A model generated the notes under the pieces. The model made no database searches. It was not told the origin of the DNA and was given only the letters and a program-made list of their open reading frames with translations. From Escherichia coli (GTDB lineage: Bacteria > Pseudomonadota > Gammaproteobacteria > Enterobacterales > Enterobacteriaceae), in assembly GCF_016903815.1 (NCBI RefSeq), contig NZ_CP069973.1: a stretch of DNA of 64,000 nt; one strand, written 5' to 3'. A program made the translations under genes and the position numbers. Below, piece after piece: positions 7,405-64,000 of this stretch. Numbering within the stretch: the stretch's first letter is position 1; the number at the start of each line of letters is the position of its first letter.

Positions 7405-8016
7405 TCATGCATTCTCGACCCCGATGGCACGGCTATTGAGGACGCGTAGCGTCGCGAATTTTTGGTTGATATCAATGGCGCTCCAACACCCCTGGTCAAC
7501 GCGAAAATGCCACATAGCTTCGGCAGGCATACCAATTAAACGGGCGATTAACAGACTCAGTACACCCTGATGGCTGACGACTAAAATATTCTGATAGTGC
7601 TGAAATTCACTAAGCCTTGCGATAAACCGTTCCACACGTTGTGAAAATGCCTGAAATCCTTCACCGTTCGTGGGGATAGCATGCTGCCAGTCATTGCACC
7701 ACGCGCTATAGTTTTCGGCATCTTCTTGCATGAGGTCGCGATGATGTCGCATCTCCCAGTCGCCAAAAAACATTTCGTTGAGTTCAGGGATGATTTGCAC
7801 GGGGAGCTGGCGATCACTGAGAACCCGTCGCGCGGTATGCTGTGCCCGTTCCAGTTCACTGCATAAAACCAGGTCAAAGGAAACACCATGTAGCAGCGTA
7901 TGCAGATTTTGCGCTTGCTCAATACCGCGCGCAGTCAGGGGGGTGGGCGCATGACCGCTGTAAAGACCATCGATATTCGCTTGCGTTTCATCATGACGAA
8001 TTAACCACAGTCGCAT
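7405..8016 (-). CDS. cobC: Adenosylcobalamin/alpha-ribazole phosphatase CobC (PhpB); start taken at the second Met of the track ORF
   Basis: Histidine phosphatase RHG motif (MRLWLIRHDETQ...); the track ORF begins one codon earlier, at 8019. Confidence 0.8.
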   Translation of the reverse strand: MRLWLIRHDETQANIDGLYSGHAPTPLTARGIEQAQNLHTLLHGVSFDLVLCSELERAQHTARRVLSDRQLPVQIIPELNEMFFGDWEMRHHRDLMQEDAENYSAWCNDWQHAIPTNGEGFQAFSQRVERFIARLSEFQHYQNILVVSHQGVLSLLIARLIGMPAEAMWHFRVDQGCWSAIDINQKFATLRVLNSRAIGVENA

Positions 8017-8039: not shown

Positions 8040-8681
8040 TCAGCGATACAAGCCTTGTTGGTTAATGTAAGTCAGTACCGGTTCCGGCAATAAATCCTCA
8101 CACGATTCACCGTTTTGCAAACGTTCGCGGATGATGGTCGCCGAGATGTTAAACCACGGCGTTTCAGCCAGATAAATTTTACCGGCAGGCTGAAGGTGAA
8201 GATCTTCCGGGTTATGTGTCAAATGATCTTCCAGCCATTGCTGGTATTGCGGTTGCGCCATTTCAAGTGGGTAACCTGGACGCCGACAGACGATCAAATG
8301 TGCATTGTCGAGTATCGTTTCGTATTCGTACCAGGTCGGAAAGGTCAGCAGTGAATCCTGACCTATAATAAACGCCAGCGGCACGTCCGGCCCTTGTTCC
8401 TGCCGCCACTCTTTCAGTGTTTGCGCAGTGTAAGAGGGGGCATTGCGCTTTAGCTCGCGTTCATCAAGAGTAAATAATGGCTTGTCGGCAATCGCCAGTT
8501 CAAGCATGTGTTTACGCTGCACGCTGTTCGCTTCCGGCTGGGGACGATGCGGAGGAACATTATTAGGGATGATTGTGACCCGCGTCAGACCAATCAAATT
8601 CGCCAGCGTTTCCACGGGTTTAAGATGACCATAGTGCACCGGATCAAAGGTGCCGCCAAACAGAGCCTGTAAAGATTTCAT
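8040..8681 (-). CDS. nadD: Nicotinate-nucleotide adenylyltransferase NadD (213 aa)
   Basis: [11 protein letters not shown] nucleotidyltransferase motif near the N-terminus. Confidence 0.9.
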
Positions 8682-57410: not shown

Positions 57411-60400
57411 ATGAGTGGAAAACCGGCGGCGCGTCAGGGCGACATGACGCAGTATGGCGGTAGCATTGTCCAGGGTTCAGCCGGGGTGCGCATCGGTGCC
57501 CCCACCGGCGTGGCCTGTTCGGTGTGCCCCGGCGGGGTGACGTCCGGCCATCCGGTCAATCCGCTGCTCGGCGCGAAGGTCCTTCCCGGAGAAACCGACC
57601 TTGCCCTGCCCGGCCCGCTGCCGTTCATCCTCTCCCGCACCTACAGCAGTTACCGGACAAAAACGCCCGCGCCGGTGGGGAGCCTCGGCCCCGGCTGGAA
57701 AATGCCTGCGGATATCCGCTTACAGCTGCGCGATAACACACTGATACTCAGTGATAACGGCGGCAGAAGCCTGTATTTTGAGCACCTGTTTCCCGGTGAG
57801 GACGGTTACAGCCGCAGCGAGTCACTCTGGCTGGTGCGCGGCGGTGTCCTGAAACTGGATGAAGGTCACCGGCTGGCCGCACTCTGGCAGGCGCTGCCGG
57901 AAGAACTCCGCTTAAGTCCGCATCGTTATCTGGCGACGAACAGTCCGCAGGGGCCGTGGTGGGTACTCGGCTGGTGTGAGCGGGTGCCGGAGGCGGATGA
58001 GGTGCTGCCTGCGCCGCTGCCGCCGTACCGGGTACTGACCGGGCTGGTGGACCGCTTCGGGCGCACACAGACGTTCCACCGTGAGGCTGGCGGCGAAATC
58101 ACCGGCGTGACGGATGGTGCCGGGCGTCACTTCCGGCTGGTACTGACCACGCAGGCGCAGCGGGCAGAAGAAGCCCGGCAGCAGGCCTCTTCCGGCGGGA
58201 CGGAACCGTCCGCTTTTCCTGATACCCTGCCGGGTTACACCGAATATGGCCGGGACAACGGCATCCGTCTGTCTGCCGTGTGGCTGACGCACGACCCGGA
58301 ATACCCGGAGAATTTACCTGCCGCGCCGCTGGTGCGCTATGGCTGGACGCCACGCGGCGAACTGGCGGCGGTGTATGACCGCAGCAATACACAGGTGCGC
58401 AGCTTTACTTACGATGATAAATACCGGGGCCGGATGGTGGCGCACCGTCACACGGGCCGGCCGGAAATCCGTTACCGTTACGACAGCGACGGGCGGGTGA
58501 CAGAACAGCTAAACCCGGCAGGCTTAAGCTACACGTATCAGTATGAGAAAGACCGCATCACCATCACCGACAGTATGGACCGCCGTGAAGTGCTGCACAC
58601 GCAGGGCGAAGGCGGGCTGAAGCGGGTGGTGAAAAAGGAACACGCGGACGGCAGCGTCACGCAGAGTCAGTTTGATGCGGTGGGCAGGCTTAAGGCACAG
58701 ACGGATGCCGCAGGCCGGACGACTGAGTACAGCCCGGATGTGGTGACGGGACTCATCACGCGCATCACCACACCGGATGGCAGGGCATCGGCATTTTACT
58801 ATAACCACCACAACCAGTTAACGTCAGCCACCGGGCCTGACGGGCTGGAAATACGCCGGGAATATGATGAATCCGGCCGTCTGATTCAGGAAACCGCACA
58901 CAACGGCGATATCACCCGCTACCGTTATGATAATCCACACAGTGACTTACCCTGCGCAACGGAAGATGCCACCGGCAGCCGGAAAACCATGACATGGAGC
59001 CGTTACGGTCAGTTGCTGACCGTCACTGACTGTTCCGGTTATGTAACCCGTTATGACCATGACCGTTTTGGTCAGGTGACGGCGGTGCACCGCGAGGAAG
59101 GGCTGAGTCAGTACCGCGCATACGACAGCCGTGGACAGTTAATTGCGGTGAAAGACACGCAGGGCCATGAAACGCGGTATGAATACAACGCCGCCGGTGA
59201 CCTGACCGCCGTCATTGCCCCGGACGGCAGCAGAAACGGGACACAGTACGATGCGTGGGGAAAGGCCATCCGTACCACACAGGGCGGTCTGACGCGCAGT
59301 ATGGAATACGATGCTGCCGGACGGGTCATCCGCCTGACCAGTGAAAACGGCAGCCACACCACCTTCCGTTACGATGTACTCGACCGGCTGATACAGGAAA
59401 CCGGCTTTGACGGCCGCACACAGCGTTATCACCACGACCTGACCGGCAAACTTATCCGCAGCGAGGATGAGGGGCTGGTCACCCACTGGCACTATGACGA
59501 AGCAGACCGCATCACACAGCGAACGGTGAATGGTGAAACCGCAGAACAGTGGCGGTACGACGAACGCGGCTGGCTGACACAAATCAGCCATCTCAGCGAA
59601 GGCCACCGGGTGACGGTGCATTACGGGTATGATGAGAAAGGCCGCCTGACCGGTGAGCGCCAGACGGTGCATCACCCGCAGACGGAAGCACTGCTCTGGC
59701 AGCATGAAACCAGACACGCTTACAACGCGCAGGGACTGGCGAACCGCTGTATACCGGACAGCCTGCCCGCCGTGGAATGGCTGACTTACGGCAGCGGCTG
59801 GCTGGCAGGCATGAAACTCGGCGACACACCGCTGGTGGATTTCACCCGCGACCGCCTGCACCGGGAAACGCTGCGCAGCTTCGGCCGTTATGAACTCACC
59901 ACCGCTTATACCTCTGCCGGGCAGTTACAGAGCCAGCACCTGAACAGCCTGCAGTATGACCGCGATTACACCTGGAACGACAACGGCGAACTCATCCGCA
60001 TCAGCAGCCCGCGCCAGACCCGGAGTTACAGCTACAGCGACACCGGCAGGCTGACCGGCGTCCACACCACGGCAGCGAACCTTGATATCCGCATCCCGTA
60101 TGCCACGGACCCGGCGGGCAACCGCCTGCCCGACCCGGAGCTGCACCCGGACAGCCCCCTCAGCGCATGGCCGGATAACCGTATCGCCCGTGACGCGCAC
60201 TATCTTTACCGGTATGACCGTCACGGCAGGCTGACGGAGAAAACCGACCTCATCCCGGAAGGGGTTATCCGCACGGATGATGAGCGGACTCACCGGTACC
60301 ATTACGACAGCCGGCACCGGCTGGTGCACTACACGCGGACACAATATGCAGAGCCGCTGGTCGAAAGTCGCTATCTTTACGACCTGCTGGGCCGCAGGGT

Positions 60401-61550
60401 GGCAAAACGGGTATGGCGGCGTGAACGGGACCTGACGGGCTGGATGTCGCTGTCATGGAAACCGGAAGTGCCCTGGTACGGCTGGGACGGCGACCGGCTG
60501 ACCACAATACAGAACGACAGAACCCGCATCCAGACGGTTTATCAGCCGGGGAGCTTCACGCCACTCATCAGAGTTGAAACTGCCACCGGTGAGCTGGCGA
60601 AAACGCAGCGCCGCAGCCTGGCGGATGCGCTTCAGCAGTCCGGCGGTGAAGACGGTGGCAGTGTGGTGTTCCCGCCGGTGCTGGTGCAGATGCTCGACCG
60701 GCTGGAAAGTGAAATCCTGGCTGACCGGGTGAGTGAGGAAAGCCGCCGCTGGCTGGCATCGTGCGGCCTGACGGTGGAGCAGATACAAAACCAGATGGAC
60801 CCGGTGTACACGCCGGCGCGAAAAATCCACCTGTACCACTGCGACCATCGCGGCCTGCCGCTGGCGCTTGTCAGCACGGAAGGGGCAACAGAATGGTGCG
60901 CAGAATACGATGAATGGGGCAACCTGCTGAATGAAGAGAACCCGCATCAGCTGCAGCAGCTCATCCGCCTGCCGGGTCAGCAGTATGATGAGGAGTCCGG
61001 CCTGTATTACAACCGCCACCGCTATTATGACCCGCTGAAGGGGCGGTATATCACTCAGGATCCGATTGGACTGAAGGGGGGATGGAATTTTTATCAGTAT
61101 CCGTTAAATCCGATCTCAGAGATAGACCCACAAGGGTTAAATCCGTTAATTCTTAGTGTTGTAGCACTGATGAGTTGCGGTTTGTTTTCATCAGGTGGTG
61201 TTATCCAAAGTGGGCAACAACGCAGAGATCAATATGGCCGTAAAGTTAATCCAGAAGCCGACAAATTAACAGATGAACATAAGTCAGGTGTAAATCCTGG
61301 TGGTAACTGTAGTCCCCAGAACCTGAGTGACTTACAAAATGAAAAAAACAGATTATGTAACCAGTCTAGAGCTTGCGCTCCTCAGATGCTGAGAAAAGAA
61401 ATATTGAGACGGTACGAGATAAATTTGGCGTGCGCTTCGGTCAGAAAGCAGATTAATAATCAGTGCTTTGGTGGTGGAGATAAGGCCCATATGGAAGAAG
61501 AGAATAAAGCATATAAAACAGCAGCTGATTGCAGTGGCTTAATAAAATGA
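57411..61550 (+). CDS. rhsC: PAAR-domain RHS-repeat polymorphic toxin (RhsC-type, 1379 aa) with a variable low-GC C-terminal toxin tip
   Basis: N-terminal PAAR-like segment ([11 protein letters not shown]...), many YD/RHS repeats ([27 protein letters not shown] and others), core-end motif PxxxxDPxGL (DPIGLKGG...EIDPQGL) at about 61080–61140, then an AT-rich Cys-rich tip of roughly 135 aa. Confidence 0.9.
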
Positions 61551-62050
61551 AAAAAATAATTTTCTCTAACGAGAGTGCAGTCTATGATGAACTTATGATT
61601 CATTTCCCATGCCAGCCATTACCTCATATTTCAAATGATATTACAGGGCTGGAGGAACTGGATATTGTATATAATTTTTTCCAAAAGAAACAATGGAATG
61701 AAATAGCCAACAATTTTAAAATAAAGGATGACTCTTATGCTTTAGAGTTAGGAATTACATTCCTCCCTGAGAAAGTATTCTGCTATTACATCCCTCTGTA
61801 TATTTATGCCTCGTTGTTTAATAAGAATGATTTTTGGGTTTTTGAATCCGATTTTATTCAACAATATTTATGTCCTGAGTATCGGGATCACGATGATTTT
61901 TTGAATTTTGTTTTTAATTTTTCAGATATACAACTATCTATTATTGCACAGTTTATGTCTTATGAATCAGACGCTGGATTCTTTTATGCAAGTAAAGCTT
62001 GTATGGATTTTTGGGAAGATTATTCACCTCTATTACATAAGAAAATTTAA
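61547..62050 (+). CDS. Putative cognate immunity protein for the RhsC C-terminal toxin (167 aa from [10 protein letters not shown]); no family I recognise
   Basis: Start overlaps the rhsC stop (ATGA); strongly AT-rich like the toxin tip; position is canonical for Rhs immunity genes; the track ORF starts 6 codons upstream. Confidence 0.6.
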
Positions 62051-62102
62051 TCGTAAAAGGTATAAATGGTTTAATAAAAAACTTGTCTACTCGTTGGAGT
62101 AG

Positions 62103-62720
62103 ATGAAAAATAAGATGACGTTGGCATATAGATCACTGCGAATAATCCACCTCTACCACTGCGACTATCGCGGCCTGCCGCTGACGCTTATCAGCCCTGA
62201 CGGGGCAACAGAATGGTGCGCAGAATATGATGAATGGGGCAACCTGCTGACTGAAGAGAACCCGCAGCACCTGCAGCAGCTTATCCGTCTGCCGGGGCAG
62301 CAGTATGATGAGGAGTCCGGCCTGTATTACAACCGCCACCGCTATTATGACCCGCTGCAGGGGCGGTGTATCACTCAGGATCCGATTGGGCTGGAAGGCG
62401 GGTGGAATCAGTATGTATATGCTTCCATACATCCAACCTATTCTATTGATCCGCTGGGCTTAATTGATAAACCTGCTCCAGTATTCAATCGAGAACTAAA
62501 TTCAGATGCGTATTATCTTGCCGTAAATAATTGCTATTCATATGCTCTAAATAGGTATGGAAATCCTGGGAGTAGGATTTTTGGCGGCGGAGGATTACAA
62601 CCTGGAGAATTATCTGGAAAAGAGTTTTCTAAACTCACTTGTAGTAGTATTTTTGAAGCGTCAAAAAATGATGGTGCCAAGGACAGGGAAAGATCATCAG
62701 AAGTACACTTTTTGTACTAA
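62103..62720 (+). CDS. Orphan Rhs C-terminal module: conserved core end ([10 protein letters not shown]...DPIGLEGG...DPLGL) plus a distinct short toxin tip of about 85 aa; possibly truncated or pseudogenic
   Basis: About 90% nucleotide identity to the rhsC core end over roughly 260 bp, followed by unrelated AT-rich sequence; lacks the Rhs N-terminus. Confidence 0.65.
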
Positions 62721-62827
62721 ATAATTCGCATTTTATGTTTAAAAATTGAGATATTCCTCATTACCTGAAGCTGTTTTTTATTGCTTATACATGATCAAAT
62801 ACTCCTTACATAATTAAGGAGAACAAA

Positions 62828-63651
62828 ATGGAACTTAAAAAATTGATGGAACATATTTCTATTATCCCCGATTACAGACAAGCCTGGAAAGTGGAACATA
62901 AATTGTCGGATATTCTACTGTTGACTATTTGTGCCGTTATTTCTGGTGCAGAAGGCTGGGAAGATATAGAGGATTTTGGGGAAACACATCTCGATTTTTT
63001 GAAGCAATATGGTGATTTTGAAAATGGTATTCCTGTTCACGATACCATTGCCAGAGTTGTATCCTGTATCAGTCCTGCAAAATTTCACGAGTGCTTTATT
63101 AACTGGATGCGTGACTGCCATTCTTCAGATGATAAAGGCGTCATTGCAATTGATGGAAAAACGCTCCGGCACTCTTATGACTAGAGTCGCCGCAGGGGAG
63201 CGATTCATGTCATTAGTTCGTTCTCAACAATGCACAGTCTGGTCATCGGACAGATCAGGACGGATGAGAAATCCAATGAAATTACAGCTATCCCTGAACT
63301 TCTTAACATGTTGGATATTAAAGGAAAAATTATCACAACTGATGCGATGGGTTGCCAGAAAGATATCGCAGAGAAGATACAAAAACAGGGCGGTGATTAT
63401 TTATTCGCTGTAAAAGGAAACCAGGGGCGGCTAAATAAAGCCTTTGAGGAAAAGTTTCCGCTGAAAGAATTAAATAATCCAGAGCATGGCAGTTACGCAA
63501 TGAGTGAAAAGAGTCACGGCAGAGAAGAAATCCGTCTTCACATTGTTTGCGATGTCCCTGATGAACTTATTGATTTCACGTTTGAATGGAAAGGGCAGCC
63601 ATGGACAGAAACTACCTGACGTCAGTCCTTGCGGGGAGCGGGCTTTCGTAA
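62828..63651 (+). pseudogene. H-repeat-associated (ISAs1-family) transposase remnant with an in-frame TAG and an internal deletion
   Basis: Two track ORFs (62828..63184, 63230..63619) lie in the same frame, separated by TAG at 63182; recalled intact homologs have Lys there. The body ends at ...[11 protein letters not shown] and the conserved C-terminal peptide [16 protein letters not shown] reappears out of frame at 63601..63651. Confidence 0.75.
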
Positions 63652-63736
63652 TCTTGCCCTGCTACAACAGGATTAACTTCACAAATATCATTTCCCAACG
63701 TCTACACTTACTCCTGTAAACCGTTCAGGAGCAGTA

Positions 63737-64000
63737 ATGAATCAGCAACGATTTGATGACAGCACCCTAATCCGTATCTTCGCCCTTCATGAGTTACATC
63801 GACTGAAAGAACATGGCTTAACGCGCGGGGCACTCAACGATTATCACAGCCGCTATAAACTCGTCTTTCTGGCCCATTCCCAGCCCGAGTACCGCAAACT
63901 TGGCCCGTTTGTGGCTGATATTCACCAGTGGCAAAATCTGGATGACTATTACAACCAGTACCGCCAACGCGTAATTGTTTTGCTTTCTCACCCTGCCAAC
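63737..64000 (+). CDS. ybgA: DUF1722-family protein YbgA, 5' portion (runs off the window end)
   Basis: ATG at 63737 preceded by an aggag Shine–Dalgarno; open frame to the window end; identification by synteny and is tentative. Confidence 0.5.
   Translation, partial: MNQQRFDDSTLIRIFALHELHRLKEHGLTRGALNDYHSRYKLVFLAHSQPEYRKLGPFVADIHQWQNLDDYYNQYRQRVIVLLSHPAN

Follow-up and report, generated by a model that had tools for sequence, protein, structure and literature searches.

This analysis concerns a pair of direct repeats at the rhsC locus of Escherichia coli, studied in a 64,000-nt stretch of contig NZ_CP069973.1 (the window). A first-pass annotation, made by eye, had read these repeats as a substrate for toxin-tip switching, in which homologous recombination between the copies would delete the current toxin tip of rhsC together with its immunity gene and fuse to the full-length gene an orphan tip encoded downstream. 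Our analysis leads to a different reading, to which we assign a probability of about 0.85: the repeat is the homology scar of a C-terminal tip displacement at rhsC, the orphan is a decayed relic of the displaced tip, and recombination between the copies would be unproductive.

The E. coli locus has the gene order kdpFABC-ybfA-rhsC-...-ybgA-phrB, and all of the features described here lie on the + strand. RefSeq annotations are those of strain EC2257, which matches the window at 99.9% over 3.2 kb. Full-length rhsC (57411-61550; 1379 aa), annotated in EC2257 as an RHS element core protein, comprises a PAAR-like N terminus, a YD-repeat shell, a core and an Ntox16 toxin tip; residues 1-1243 match the NCBIfam RHS_core equivalog NF041261 with 2606 bits, against a cut-off of 2000. 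The current tip (61089-61550; 40% G+C) matches Pfam PF15523 with E = 3.1e-12 over model positions 2-84 of 85, and related Ntox16 tips were found on Rhs proteins of Proteus, Citrobacter, Enterobacter and Salmonella. The ATG of the next gene (61547-62050; 30% G+C) overlaps the rhsC stop codon (ATGA). Its 167-aa product, a RefSeq hypothetical protein (WP_000720081.1) that matches Pfam DUF6714 (PF20461; E = 3.9e-5), is presumed from its position to be the Ntox16 immunity protein. An AT-rich spacer (62051-62137) separates this gene from an orphan rhs fragment, which consists of a core stub (62138-62408) and a truncated second toxin tip unrelated to Ntox16 (62409-62683). The fragment abuts an ISEc1-like insertion sequence (IS) at 62684-63662, and the window closes with the start of ybgA (63738-64000), the conserved right flank of the rhsC locus. 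A 7-bp hairpin in the spacer (TCTACTC/GAGTAGA, 62086-62103) has a terminator-like score only on the minus strand, where no gene ends.

The repeat search of the window reported one direct-repeat family. Its copies are the last 271 nt of the rhsC core (60818-61088) and the stub of the orphan fragment (62138-62408), which RefSeq calls a pseudogene for an RHS repeat-associated core domain-containing protein missing its N terminus. The ranges estimated by eye in the first-pass annotation (60836-61095 and 62139-62398) were therefore approximately right, if some 17 nt out of register. Its figure of roughly 90% identity is corrected to 92%: a MAFFT alignment and an ungapped count both gave 249 of 271 matching bases, with perfect runs of 60, 26, 22 and 21 nt, and the translations confirm that both copies encode the protein motifs it quoted. 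The longest perfect run (60978-61037 in rhsC, 62298-62357 in the stub) also defines the interval of the historical crossover described below. On the 3′ side, identity falls at once to background (10/22, 8/50 and 23/100) after a DPxGL boundary, beyond which the main gene continues into Ntox16 and the orphan into a tip with no Pfam match. On the 5′ side, a weaker in-register match extends over 48 nt (26/48; 60770-60817 versus 62090-62137), a value that none of 20,000 shuffles reached, and further upstream the match is background (4/20 and 10/50). The last 48 nt of the spacer are thus a strongly diverged continuation of the core.

Both copies match the Pfam RHS model PF03527. The start-to-start spacing of 1320 nt is 3 x 440 codons, so any crossover between the copies gives an in-frame fusion. 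These features indicate that the repeat is homology of a conserved protein-coding core and not a product of chance. Chance and assembly artefact were also ruled out as sources of the repeat, since 241 independent complete genomes have this arrangement at an identity of at least 99%.

The orphan tip is incomplete. The 275 nt that remain match the 5′ part of a 498-nt tip with 100% identity; NA3664, ST2747 and O158:H23 carry this tip on full-length rhsC, and strain GF43 carries it as an intact orphan. About 91 of some 166 tip codons are retained. NA3664 carries, at the same chromosomal site, a full-length rhsC that bears the orphan's tip (166 aa; hereafter tipO), followed by a gene for a 124-aa protein. 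This gene also lies 3′ of the tip in GF43, and its product has a signal-peptide-like N terminus; we refer to it as immO, the presumed immunity gene of tipO. Homology between NA3664 and the window ends at 62683, where the IS starts, and resumes at 63680, which corresponds to position 8085 of the NA3664 record (L002), just 5′ of ybgA. By comparison with NA3664, 809 nt are absent from the window: the 3′ 223 nt of the tip, the whole of immO and about 230 nt of intergenic DNA.

What was lost includes most of the invariant residues of the tip family. The family is small; 18 homologues were aligned, many of which their source names as RHS repeat-associated proteins. Of 11 invariant positions, 7 lie beyond the cut (D130, H132, Q136, W142, K145, G147 and Y164). 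The nearly invariant NNCYSYA cysteine motif is kept, and the invariant D-Y-H-W-Y-R-Q...W-S-x-K-x-G block (the DYHWYRQD block) is gone. Searches of the family against Pfam, NCBIfam, PADLOC and PDB sequences gave nothing meaningful, and a fold search gave only weak NlpC/P60-like matches. From the aligned motifs, assignment of the family to periplasm-acting Cys/His peptidases is a lead, not a result. Truncated in this way, the orphan tip is probably inactive. The orphan shares several features with stored rhs modules: rhsC, the immunity-like open reading frame (ORF) and the stub all lie on one strand; the fragment begins with a 3′-end piece of core homologous to the main gene, without the N-terminal shell; and the same tip occurs on full-length Rhs proteins elsewhere, at the rhsC locus of 40 complete E. 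coli genomes. It has no cognate immunity gene, the IS adjoining the tip directly at 62684.

The element that cuts the tip at 62683/62684 belongs to the ISAs1 family, the classical H-rpt, and contains a ybfD pseudogene. It is 96.9% identical to an annotated ISEc1 copy over 914 nt, after which the alignment jumps to the last 77 nt of that copy; both ends are present, and its termini form the inverted repeats CAGGGAAAGAT and ATCTTGCCCTG. An internal stop codon, together with the internal loss of about 300 nt near 63596, renders the element immobile unless transposase is supplied in trans, and RefSeq likewise calls the transposase a pseudogene. The IS-adjacent deletion of K-12-type genomes ends elsewhere on the right, at position 7726 of the NA3664 record, compared with about 8085 for the window.

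The geometry proposed in the first-pass annotation is sound. The copies are direct and on the same strand, and a crossover would remove exactly the spacer and the Ntox16 tip with its immunity gene, joining the orphan tip to full-length rhsC in frame. The minimal efficient processing segment for homologous recombination in E. coli is a perfect match of about 25-30 bp, and mismatch repair penalizes a divergence of about 8%. The repeat is long and similar enough for homologous recombination, and plausibly it is still a legitimate substrate for RecA-dependent deletion. The expected product is rhsC followed by 91 tip residues and an 11-residue tail derived from the IS, with the Ntox16 immunity gene lost and the tip probably inactive. 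Recombination in the window strain would thus disarm rhsC, which would lose both weapon and shield and gain no new toxin. The claim that a crossover would change the toxin this strain deploys is unsupported, since the orphan tip is cut by the IS (275/498 nt), D130 and H132 are lost and the cognate immunity gene is deleted. The idea of a tip-switching substrate survives in its repeat geometry and in a past crossover; it fails on the usable new toxin, the orphan offering neither a complete toxin domain nor an immunity gene to protect a recombinant. A product that has no new toxin and has lost Ntox16 immunity should be counter-selected, a fitness cost that we infer.

We surveyed 5,426 complete E. 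coli genomes; these are consensus assemblies, where minority subpopulations do not show. At least 80% of 60500-63700 was covered in 241 genomes, the orphan/IS junction was present in 242 and the Ntox16 cassette in 243, always at 99% identity or more. The 243 cassette genomes comprise the 241 with the standard arrangement, one with an IS21 insertion and GF43. In the second of these, strain WP4-W18-ESBL-09, an IS21-family element (istA/istB; L014, 4482-7062) lies inside the Ntox16 tip of rhsC; its partial cassette had made it a candidate recombinant, which the IS21 insertion rules out. In this strain, neither the main tip nor the orphan tip is working. No repeat-mediated deletion derivative was found among the 242 complete genomes with the orphan/IS junction, all of which keep both repeat copies and the Ntox16 cassette. 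A synthetic recombinant-junction query, for which a true recombinant would rank first, returned among its top 60 matches only two-piece, parental alignments. The absence of recombinants and a fixed architecture among relatives had been named in the first-pass annotation as grounds for refuting its proposal, and at the level of assemblies this is what we found (242/242, with one IS21-in-tip variant). The lack of such derivatives among the 242 genomes fits a disarmed product.

The survey also revealed the states from which the array of the window can be understood. GF43 (L009, 2262-8128) carries rhsC, Ntox16, the immunity gene, the stub, tipO and immO in this order and without an IS; it is the only complete E. 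coli genome found with an intact two-tip array, and its stub starts at the same base as that of the window. In 40 genomes (NA3664 and 39 others, of several backgrounds), tipO and immO stand on full-length rhsC at the same locus. In about 337 K-12-type genomes, all that is left of the pair is the 3′ end of immO, beside ybgA and behind the genomes' own H-rpt elements. Three natural states thus exist at the locus: a single tip, two intact tips, and an orphan cut by an IS.

Comparison with the single-tip state locates a breakpoint inside the repeat. At the 15 two-state informative sites between 60823 and 60977, NA3664 rhsC agrees in every case with the main copy of the window (a further site, 60947, has a different base in each of the three sequences). 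Between 61038 and 61082, where there are 7 informative sites, it agrees instead with the orphan copy at 6; the exception, 61048 in the main copy and 62368 in the stub, is a Tyr-to-Cys change private to the stub of the window lineage. Compared directly, the stub and NA3664 rhsC differ at 15 of 160 positions 5′ of the 60-nt run and at 1 of 386 positions 3′ of it (Fisher p = 7e-8). The first 160 nt of the stub are an outlier, matching every rhsC-type core tested at only 145-147 of 160 positions, while these cores match one another at 152-159 of 160. Uniform pseudogene decay as the source of the 22 differences between the repeat copies was ruled out by their clustering relative to NA3664, with 15 differences in 160 nt and 1 in 386. 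The clustered differences place a recombination breakpoint within the interval that the 60-nt identical stretch defines and show that recombination has taken place in the repeat on at least one past occasion.

On either side of this breakpoint, the copies are mosaics of opposite kinds: the main copy is resident-like on its 5′ side and cassette-like on its 3′ side, and the orphan copy is foreign-like on its 5′ side and resident-like on its 3′ side. This reciprocal mosaic matches what would be predicted for single-crossover integration of a circular stub-tip-immunity intermediate of the kind postulated by Jackson et al. 2009 (PMC2935791). We propose the following history. The older tip, tipO, with its own immunity gene immO, would once have resided on rhsC. 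A cassette comprising a core stub, the Ntox16 tip, its immunity gene and the spacer would then have recombined into the 3′ end of the rhsC core by a crossover in or beside the 60-nt stretch, leaving the displaced tipO downstream as an orphan behind 271 nt of core. The ISEc1-like element would later have entered the orphan tip, and an adjacent deletion would have taken the 3′ half of the tip, immO and about 230 nt of downstream DNA.

Patterns of divergence suggest that parts of the locus have moved between lineages. Between the window and GF43, there are 92 differing positions in 57411-60581 and 4 in the 2.1 kb from 60582 to 62683, with flanks 94-97% identical, which indicates that the composite array was passed on as one block. 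The 275 retained nucleotides of the tip are 100% identical across lineages whose flanks diverge by 2-8% (L002, L009, L012 and L013), and GF43 and ST2747 show zero differences over the approximately 840 nt of tipO-immO, with about 3% in the flanks. Divergence in the tip-immunity module is much lower than in the DNA around it.

Parts of this account can also be read in other ways. The order of events is the first of these: a deletion in a GF43-like ancestor, the reverse event, would give an identical single-tip product, so the order set out above is one of inference. In this alternative, NA3664-type single-tip genomes would be deletion products of an IS-free, GF43-like two-tip ancestor, not of the IS-cut state, and the switch would have worked in nature at this locus. 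GF43 proves that an IS-free two-tip state exists, the tip is 100% identical across lineages with flank differences of 2-8%, and NA3664 rhsC resembles the main copy 5′ of the 60-nt stretch and the orphan copy 3′ of it; this last pattern follows equally from integration of a cassette into a single-tip ancestor. Other observations favor integration. The remnant of immO beside ybgA in about 337 K-12-type genomes suggests that tipO-immO is the old resident of the locus; imported DNA would be expected to stand apart from all the E. coli rhsC-type cores tested, as the 5′ part of the stub does; and the single-tip state occurs in 40 genomes with several backgrounds, against one for the IS-free two-tip state. 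GF43 is isogenic with no single-tip genome examined; a pairing with ST2747 as isogenic two-tip and single-tip strains, suggested by identical KdpA and PxpC proteins, was rejected on a DNA difference of about 3%. On balance, we regard a deletion origin of the single-tip genomes as unlikely. A live switch, in which RecA-mediated deletion between the copies would give the strain a new functional toxin, is far less probable still. The copies have the direct, in-frame arrangement, length (271 nt), identity (92%) and 60-nt perfect run that such a switch would use, the mechanism has been demonstrated in Salmonella (PMC3967940), and the tip is in use on full-length rhsC in 40 genomes. Set against this are the state of the orphan tip, cut by the IS, stripped of its D-x-H block and without its immunity gene; the absence of any recombinant among the 242 complete genomes with the array; and the loss of the Ntox16 immunity gene in the same deletion. 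Salmonella recombinants become sensitive to their siblings unless the locus has first been duplicated (PMC3967940).

The orphan could also matter if it were expressed by itself, from an internal start, and had an intracellular role like that of a toxin-antitoxin module, a role reported of Salmonella's rhs orphans. Internal promoters and starts drive the orphan Rhs toxins of Salmonella, and Rhs toxins of E. coli and other genera are reported to have the same P2 promoter upstream (PMC7043789); the window has an ATG at 62103 that shares the reading frame of the orphan and opens a 205-codon ORF. Yet the tip is truncated and has no partner gene for immunity or an antitoxin, RefSeq calls the fragment a pseudogene, and no promoter-like site was seen in 62051-62137, and the scan for such sites gave no more than shuffled sequence does. 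Nor is the start conserved. At the 5′ edge of the stub, downstream of this ATG, the only one upstream of the stub, lies a 23-nt unit, CACTGCGAATAATCCACCTCTAC, followed by an 8-nt repeat of its start (62134-62164), so that the unit is bounded by the direct repeat CACTGCGA. Its copy number varies among otherwise near-identical genomes, from 1.35 in the window to 2.3 in NMBU_W05E18 and 3.3 in NR3736 (see also L003, 3335-3388, and L004, 3335-3411), and the top 60 matches of the recombinant-junction query include record spans of 2601, 2624 and 2647 nt. As 23 is not a multiple of 3, a change in copy number alters the register of the ATG at 62103 relative to the orphan ORF, and relatives with two or three copies have this ATG out of frame. 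We consider expression of the orphan on its own extremely improbable. The unit itself might conceivably act as a slipped-strand phase switch that moves the ATG in and out of frame, or set the stub homology used for tip capture, and we mention this speculation as a very long shot; if true, the phase switch would make the relic a phase-variably expressed small protein. The reading we prefer remains displacement of tipO by the Ntox16 cassette, followed by decay of the orphan.

We also sought the source of the cassette. Plasmid and phage collections, searched for a cassette reservoir, gave only generic core matches, and a search with a reconstructed donor protein found Ntox16 Rhs proteins, none with the diagnostic residues of the stub. 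In one record, listed as a 2.3-kb Klebsiella plasmid, homology seemed to extend further, but the extra stretch proved to be ordinary core sequence adjoining yhhH and was set aside. This circular 2294-bp record, labelled a Klebsiella pneumoniae plasmid (NZ_CP054971.1; L007), contains an rhs core fragment together with a HEAT-repeat gene and yhhH, a gene of the E. coli rhsB locus. The record may be mis-assigned or may be an excised chromosomal fragment. Circular rhs intermediates have been postulated by Jackson et al. (PMC2935791).

Much of the framework for these observations is already published: earlier work describes orphan rhs tips with homology to the core, how displacement gives rise to them and how recombination activates them, and the fragment itself is already a RefSeq pseudogene. 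Our analysis adds that this orphan is probably a relic, defines the three-state series, maps the breakpoint inside the repeat and identifies GF43 as the only complete genome we found where a working toxin could come from the proposed switch. The case carries a caution, namely that core homology before an orphan tip does not prove a usable toxin reserve, and that the integrity of the tip and of its immunity gene needs to be checked. The three-state series, with its mapped breakpoint, is convenient material for the circular-intermediate displacement model and for the rate at which displaced tips decay.

Three known systems invite comparison with the window. Dissociated orphan rhs tips arising from C-terminal displacement in Enterobacteriaceae were described by Jackson et al. 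2009 (PMC2935791), and orphan rhs-CT/rhsI modules by Poole et al. 2011 (PMC3150448). As in those arrays, the orphan of the window begins with a core 3′-end fragment that carries the DPxGL boundary and is followed by an unrelated tip of low G+C; the same tip occurs on full-length Rhs proteins elsewhere, and the reciprocal mosaic fits integration of a circular intermediate. In contrast to displaced orphan modules, the tip of the window is cut by an IS and lacks an immunity gene, which makes it a relic and not a stored module, and it has a short stub, of 271 nt with a further 48 nt of degraded core.

Recombination of rhs-main with rhs-CT-orphan was shown experimentally in Salmonella Typhimurium LT2 by Koskiniemi et al. 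2014 (PMC3967940). In LT2, as in the window, a direct repeat of core sequence joins the main gene and the orphan, and a crossover drops the main tip and its immunity gene and makes a chimeric full-length rhs. The LT2 repeat is 522 bp long at 95% identity, against 271 nt at 92% in the window; the LT2 orphan tip and immunity gene are intact and functional, whereas those of the window are not; and recombinants were observed in LT2 (PMC3967940), compared with none in 242 assemblies of the window type. The third system is the E. coli K-12 rhsC locus itself, rhsC-ybfB-orphan ybfO-ybfC-H-rpt ybfQ/ybfL/ybfD-ybgA. Both loci occupy the same ybfA-ybgA site, carry an orphan fragment after the main gene and have an ISAs1-family H-rpt between the rhs array and ybgA. 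They differ in the main tip, which is Ntox16 in the window, in the orphan tip and in the endpoint of the IS-adjacent deletion: the K-12 type keeps 375 nt that comprise the 3′ end of immO and downstream DNA, whereas the window keeps the 5′ half of tipO instead.

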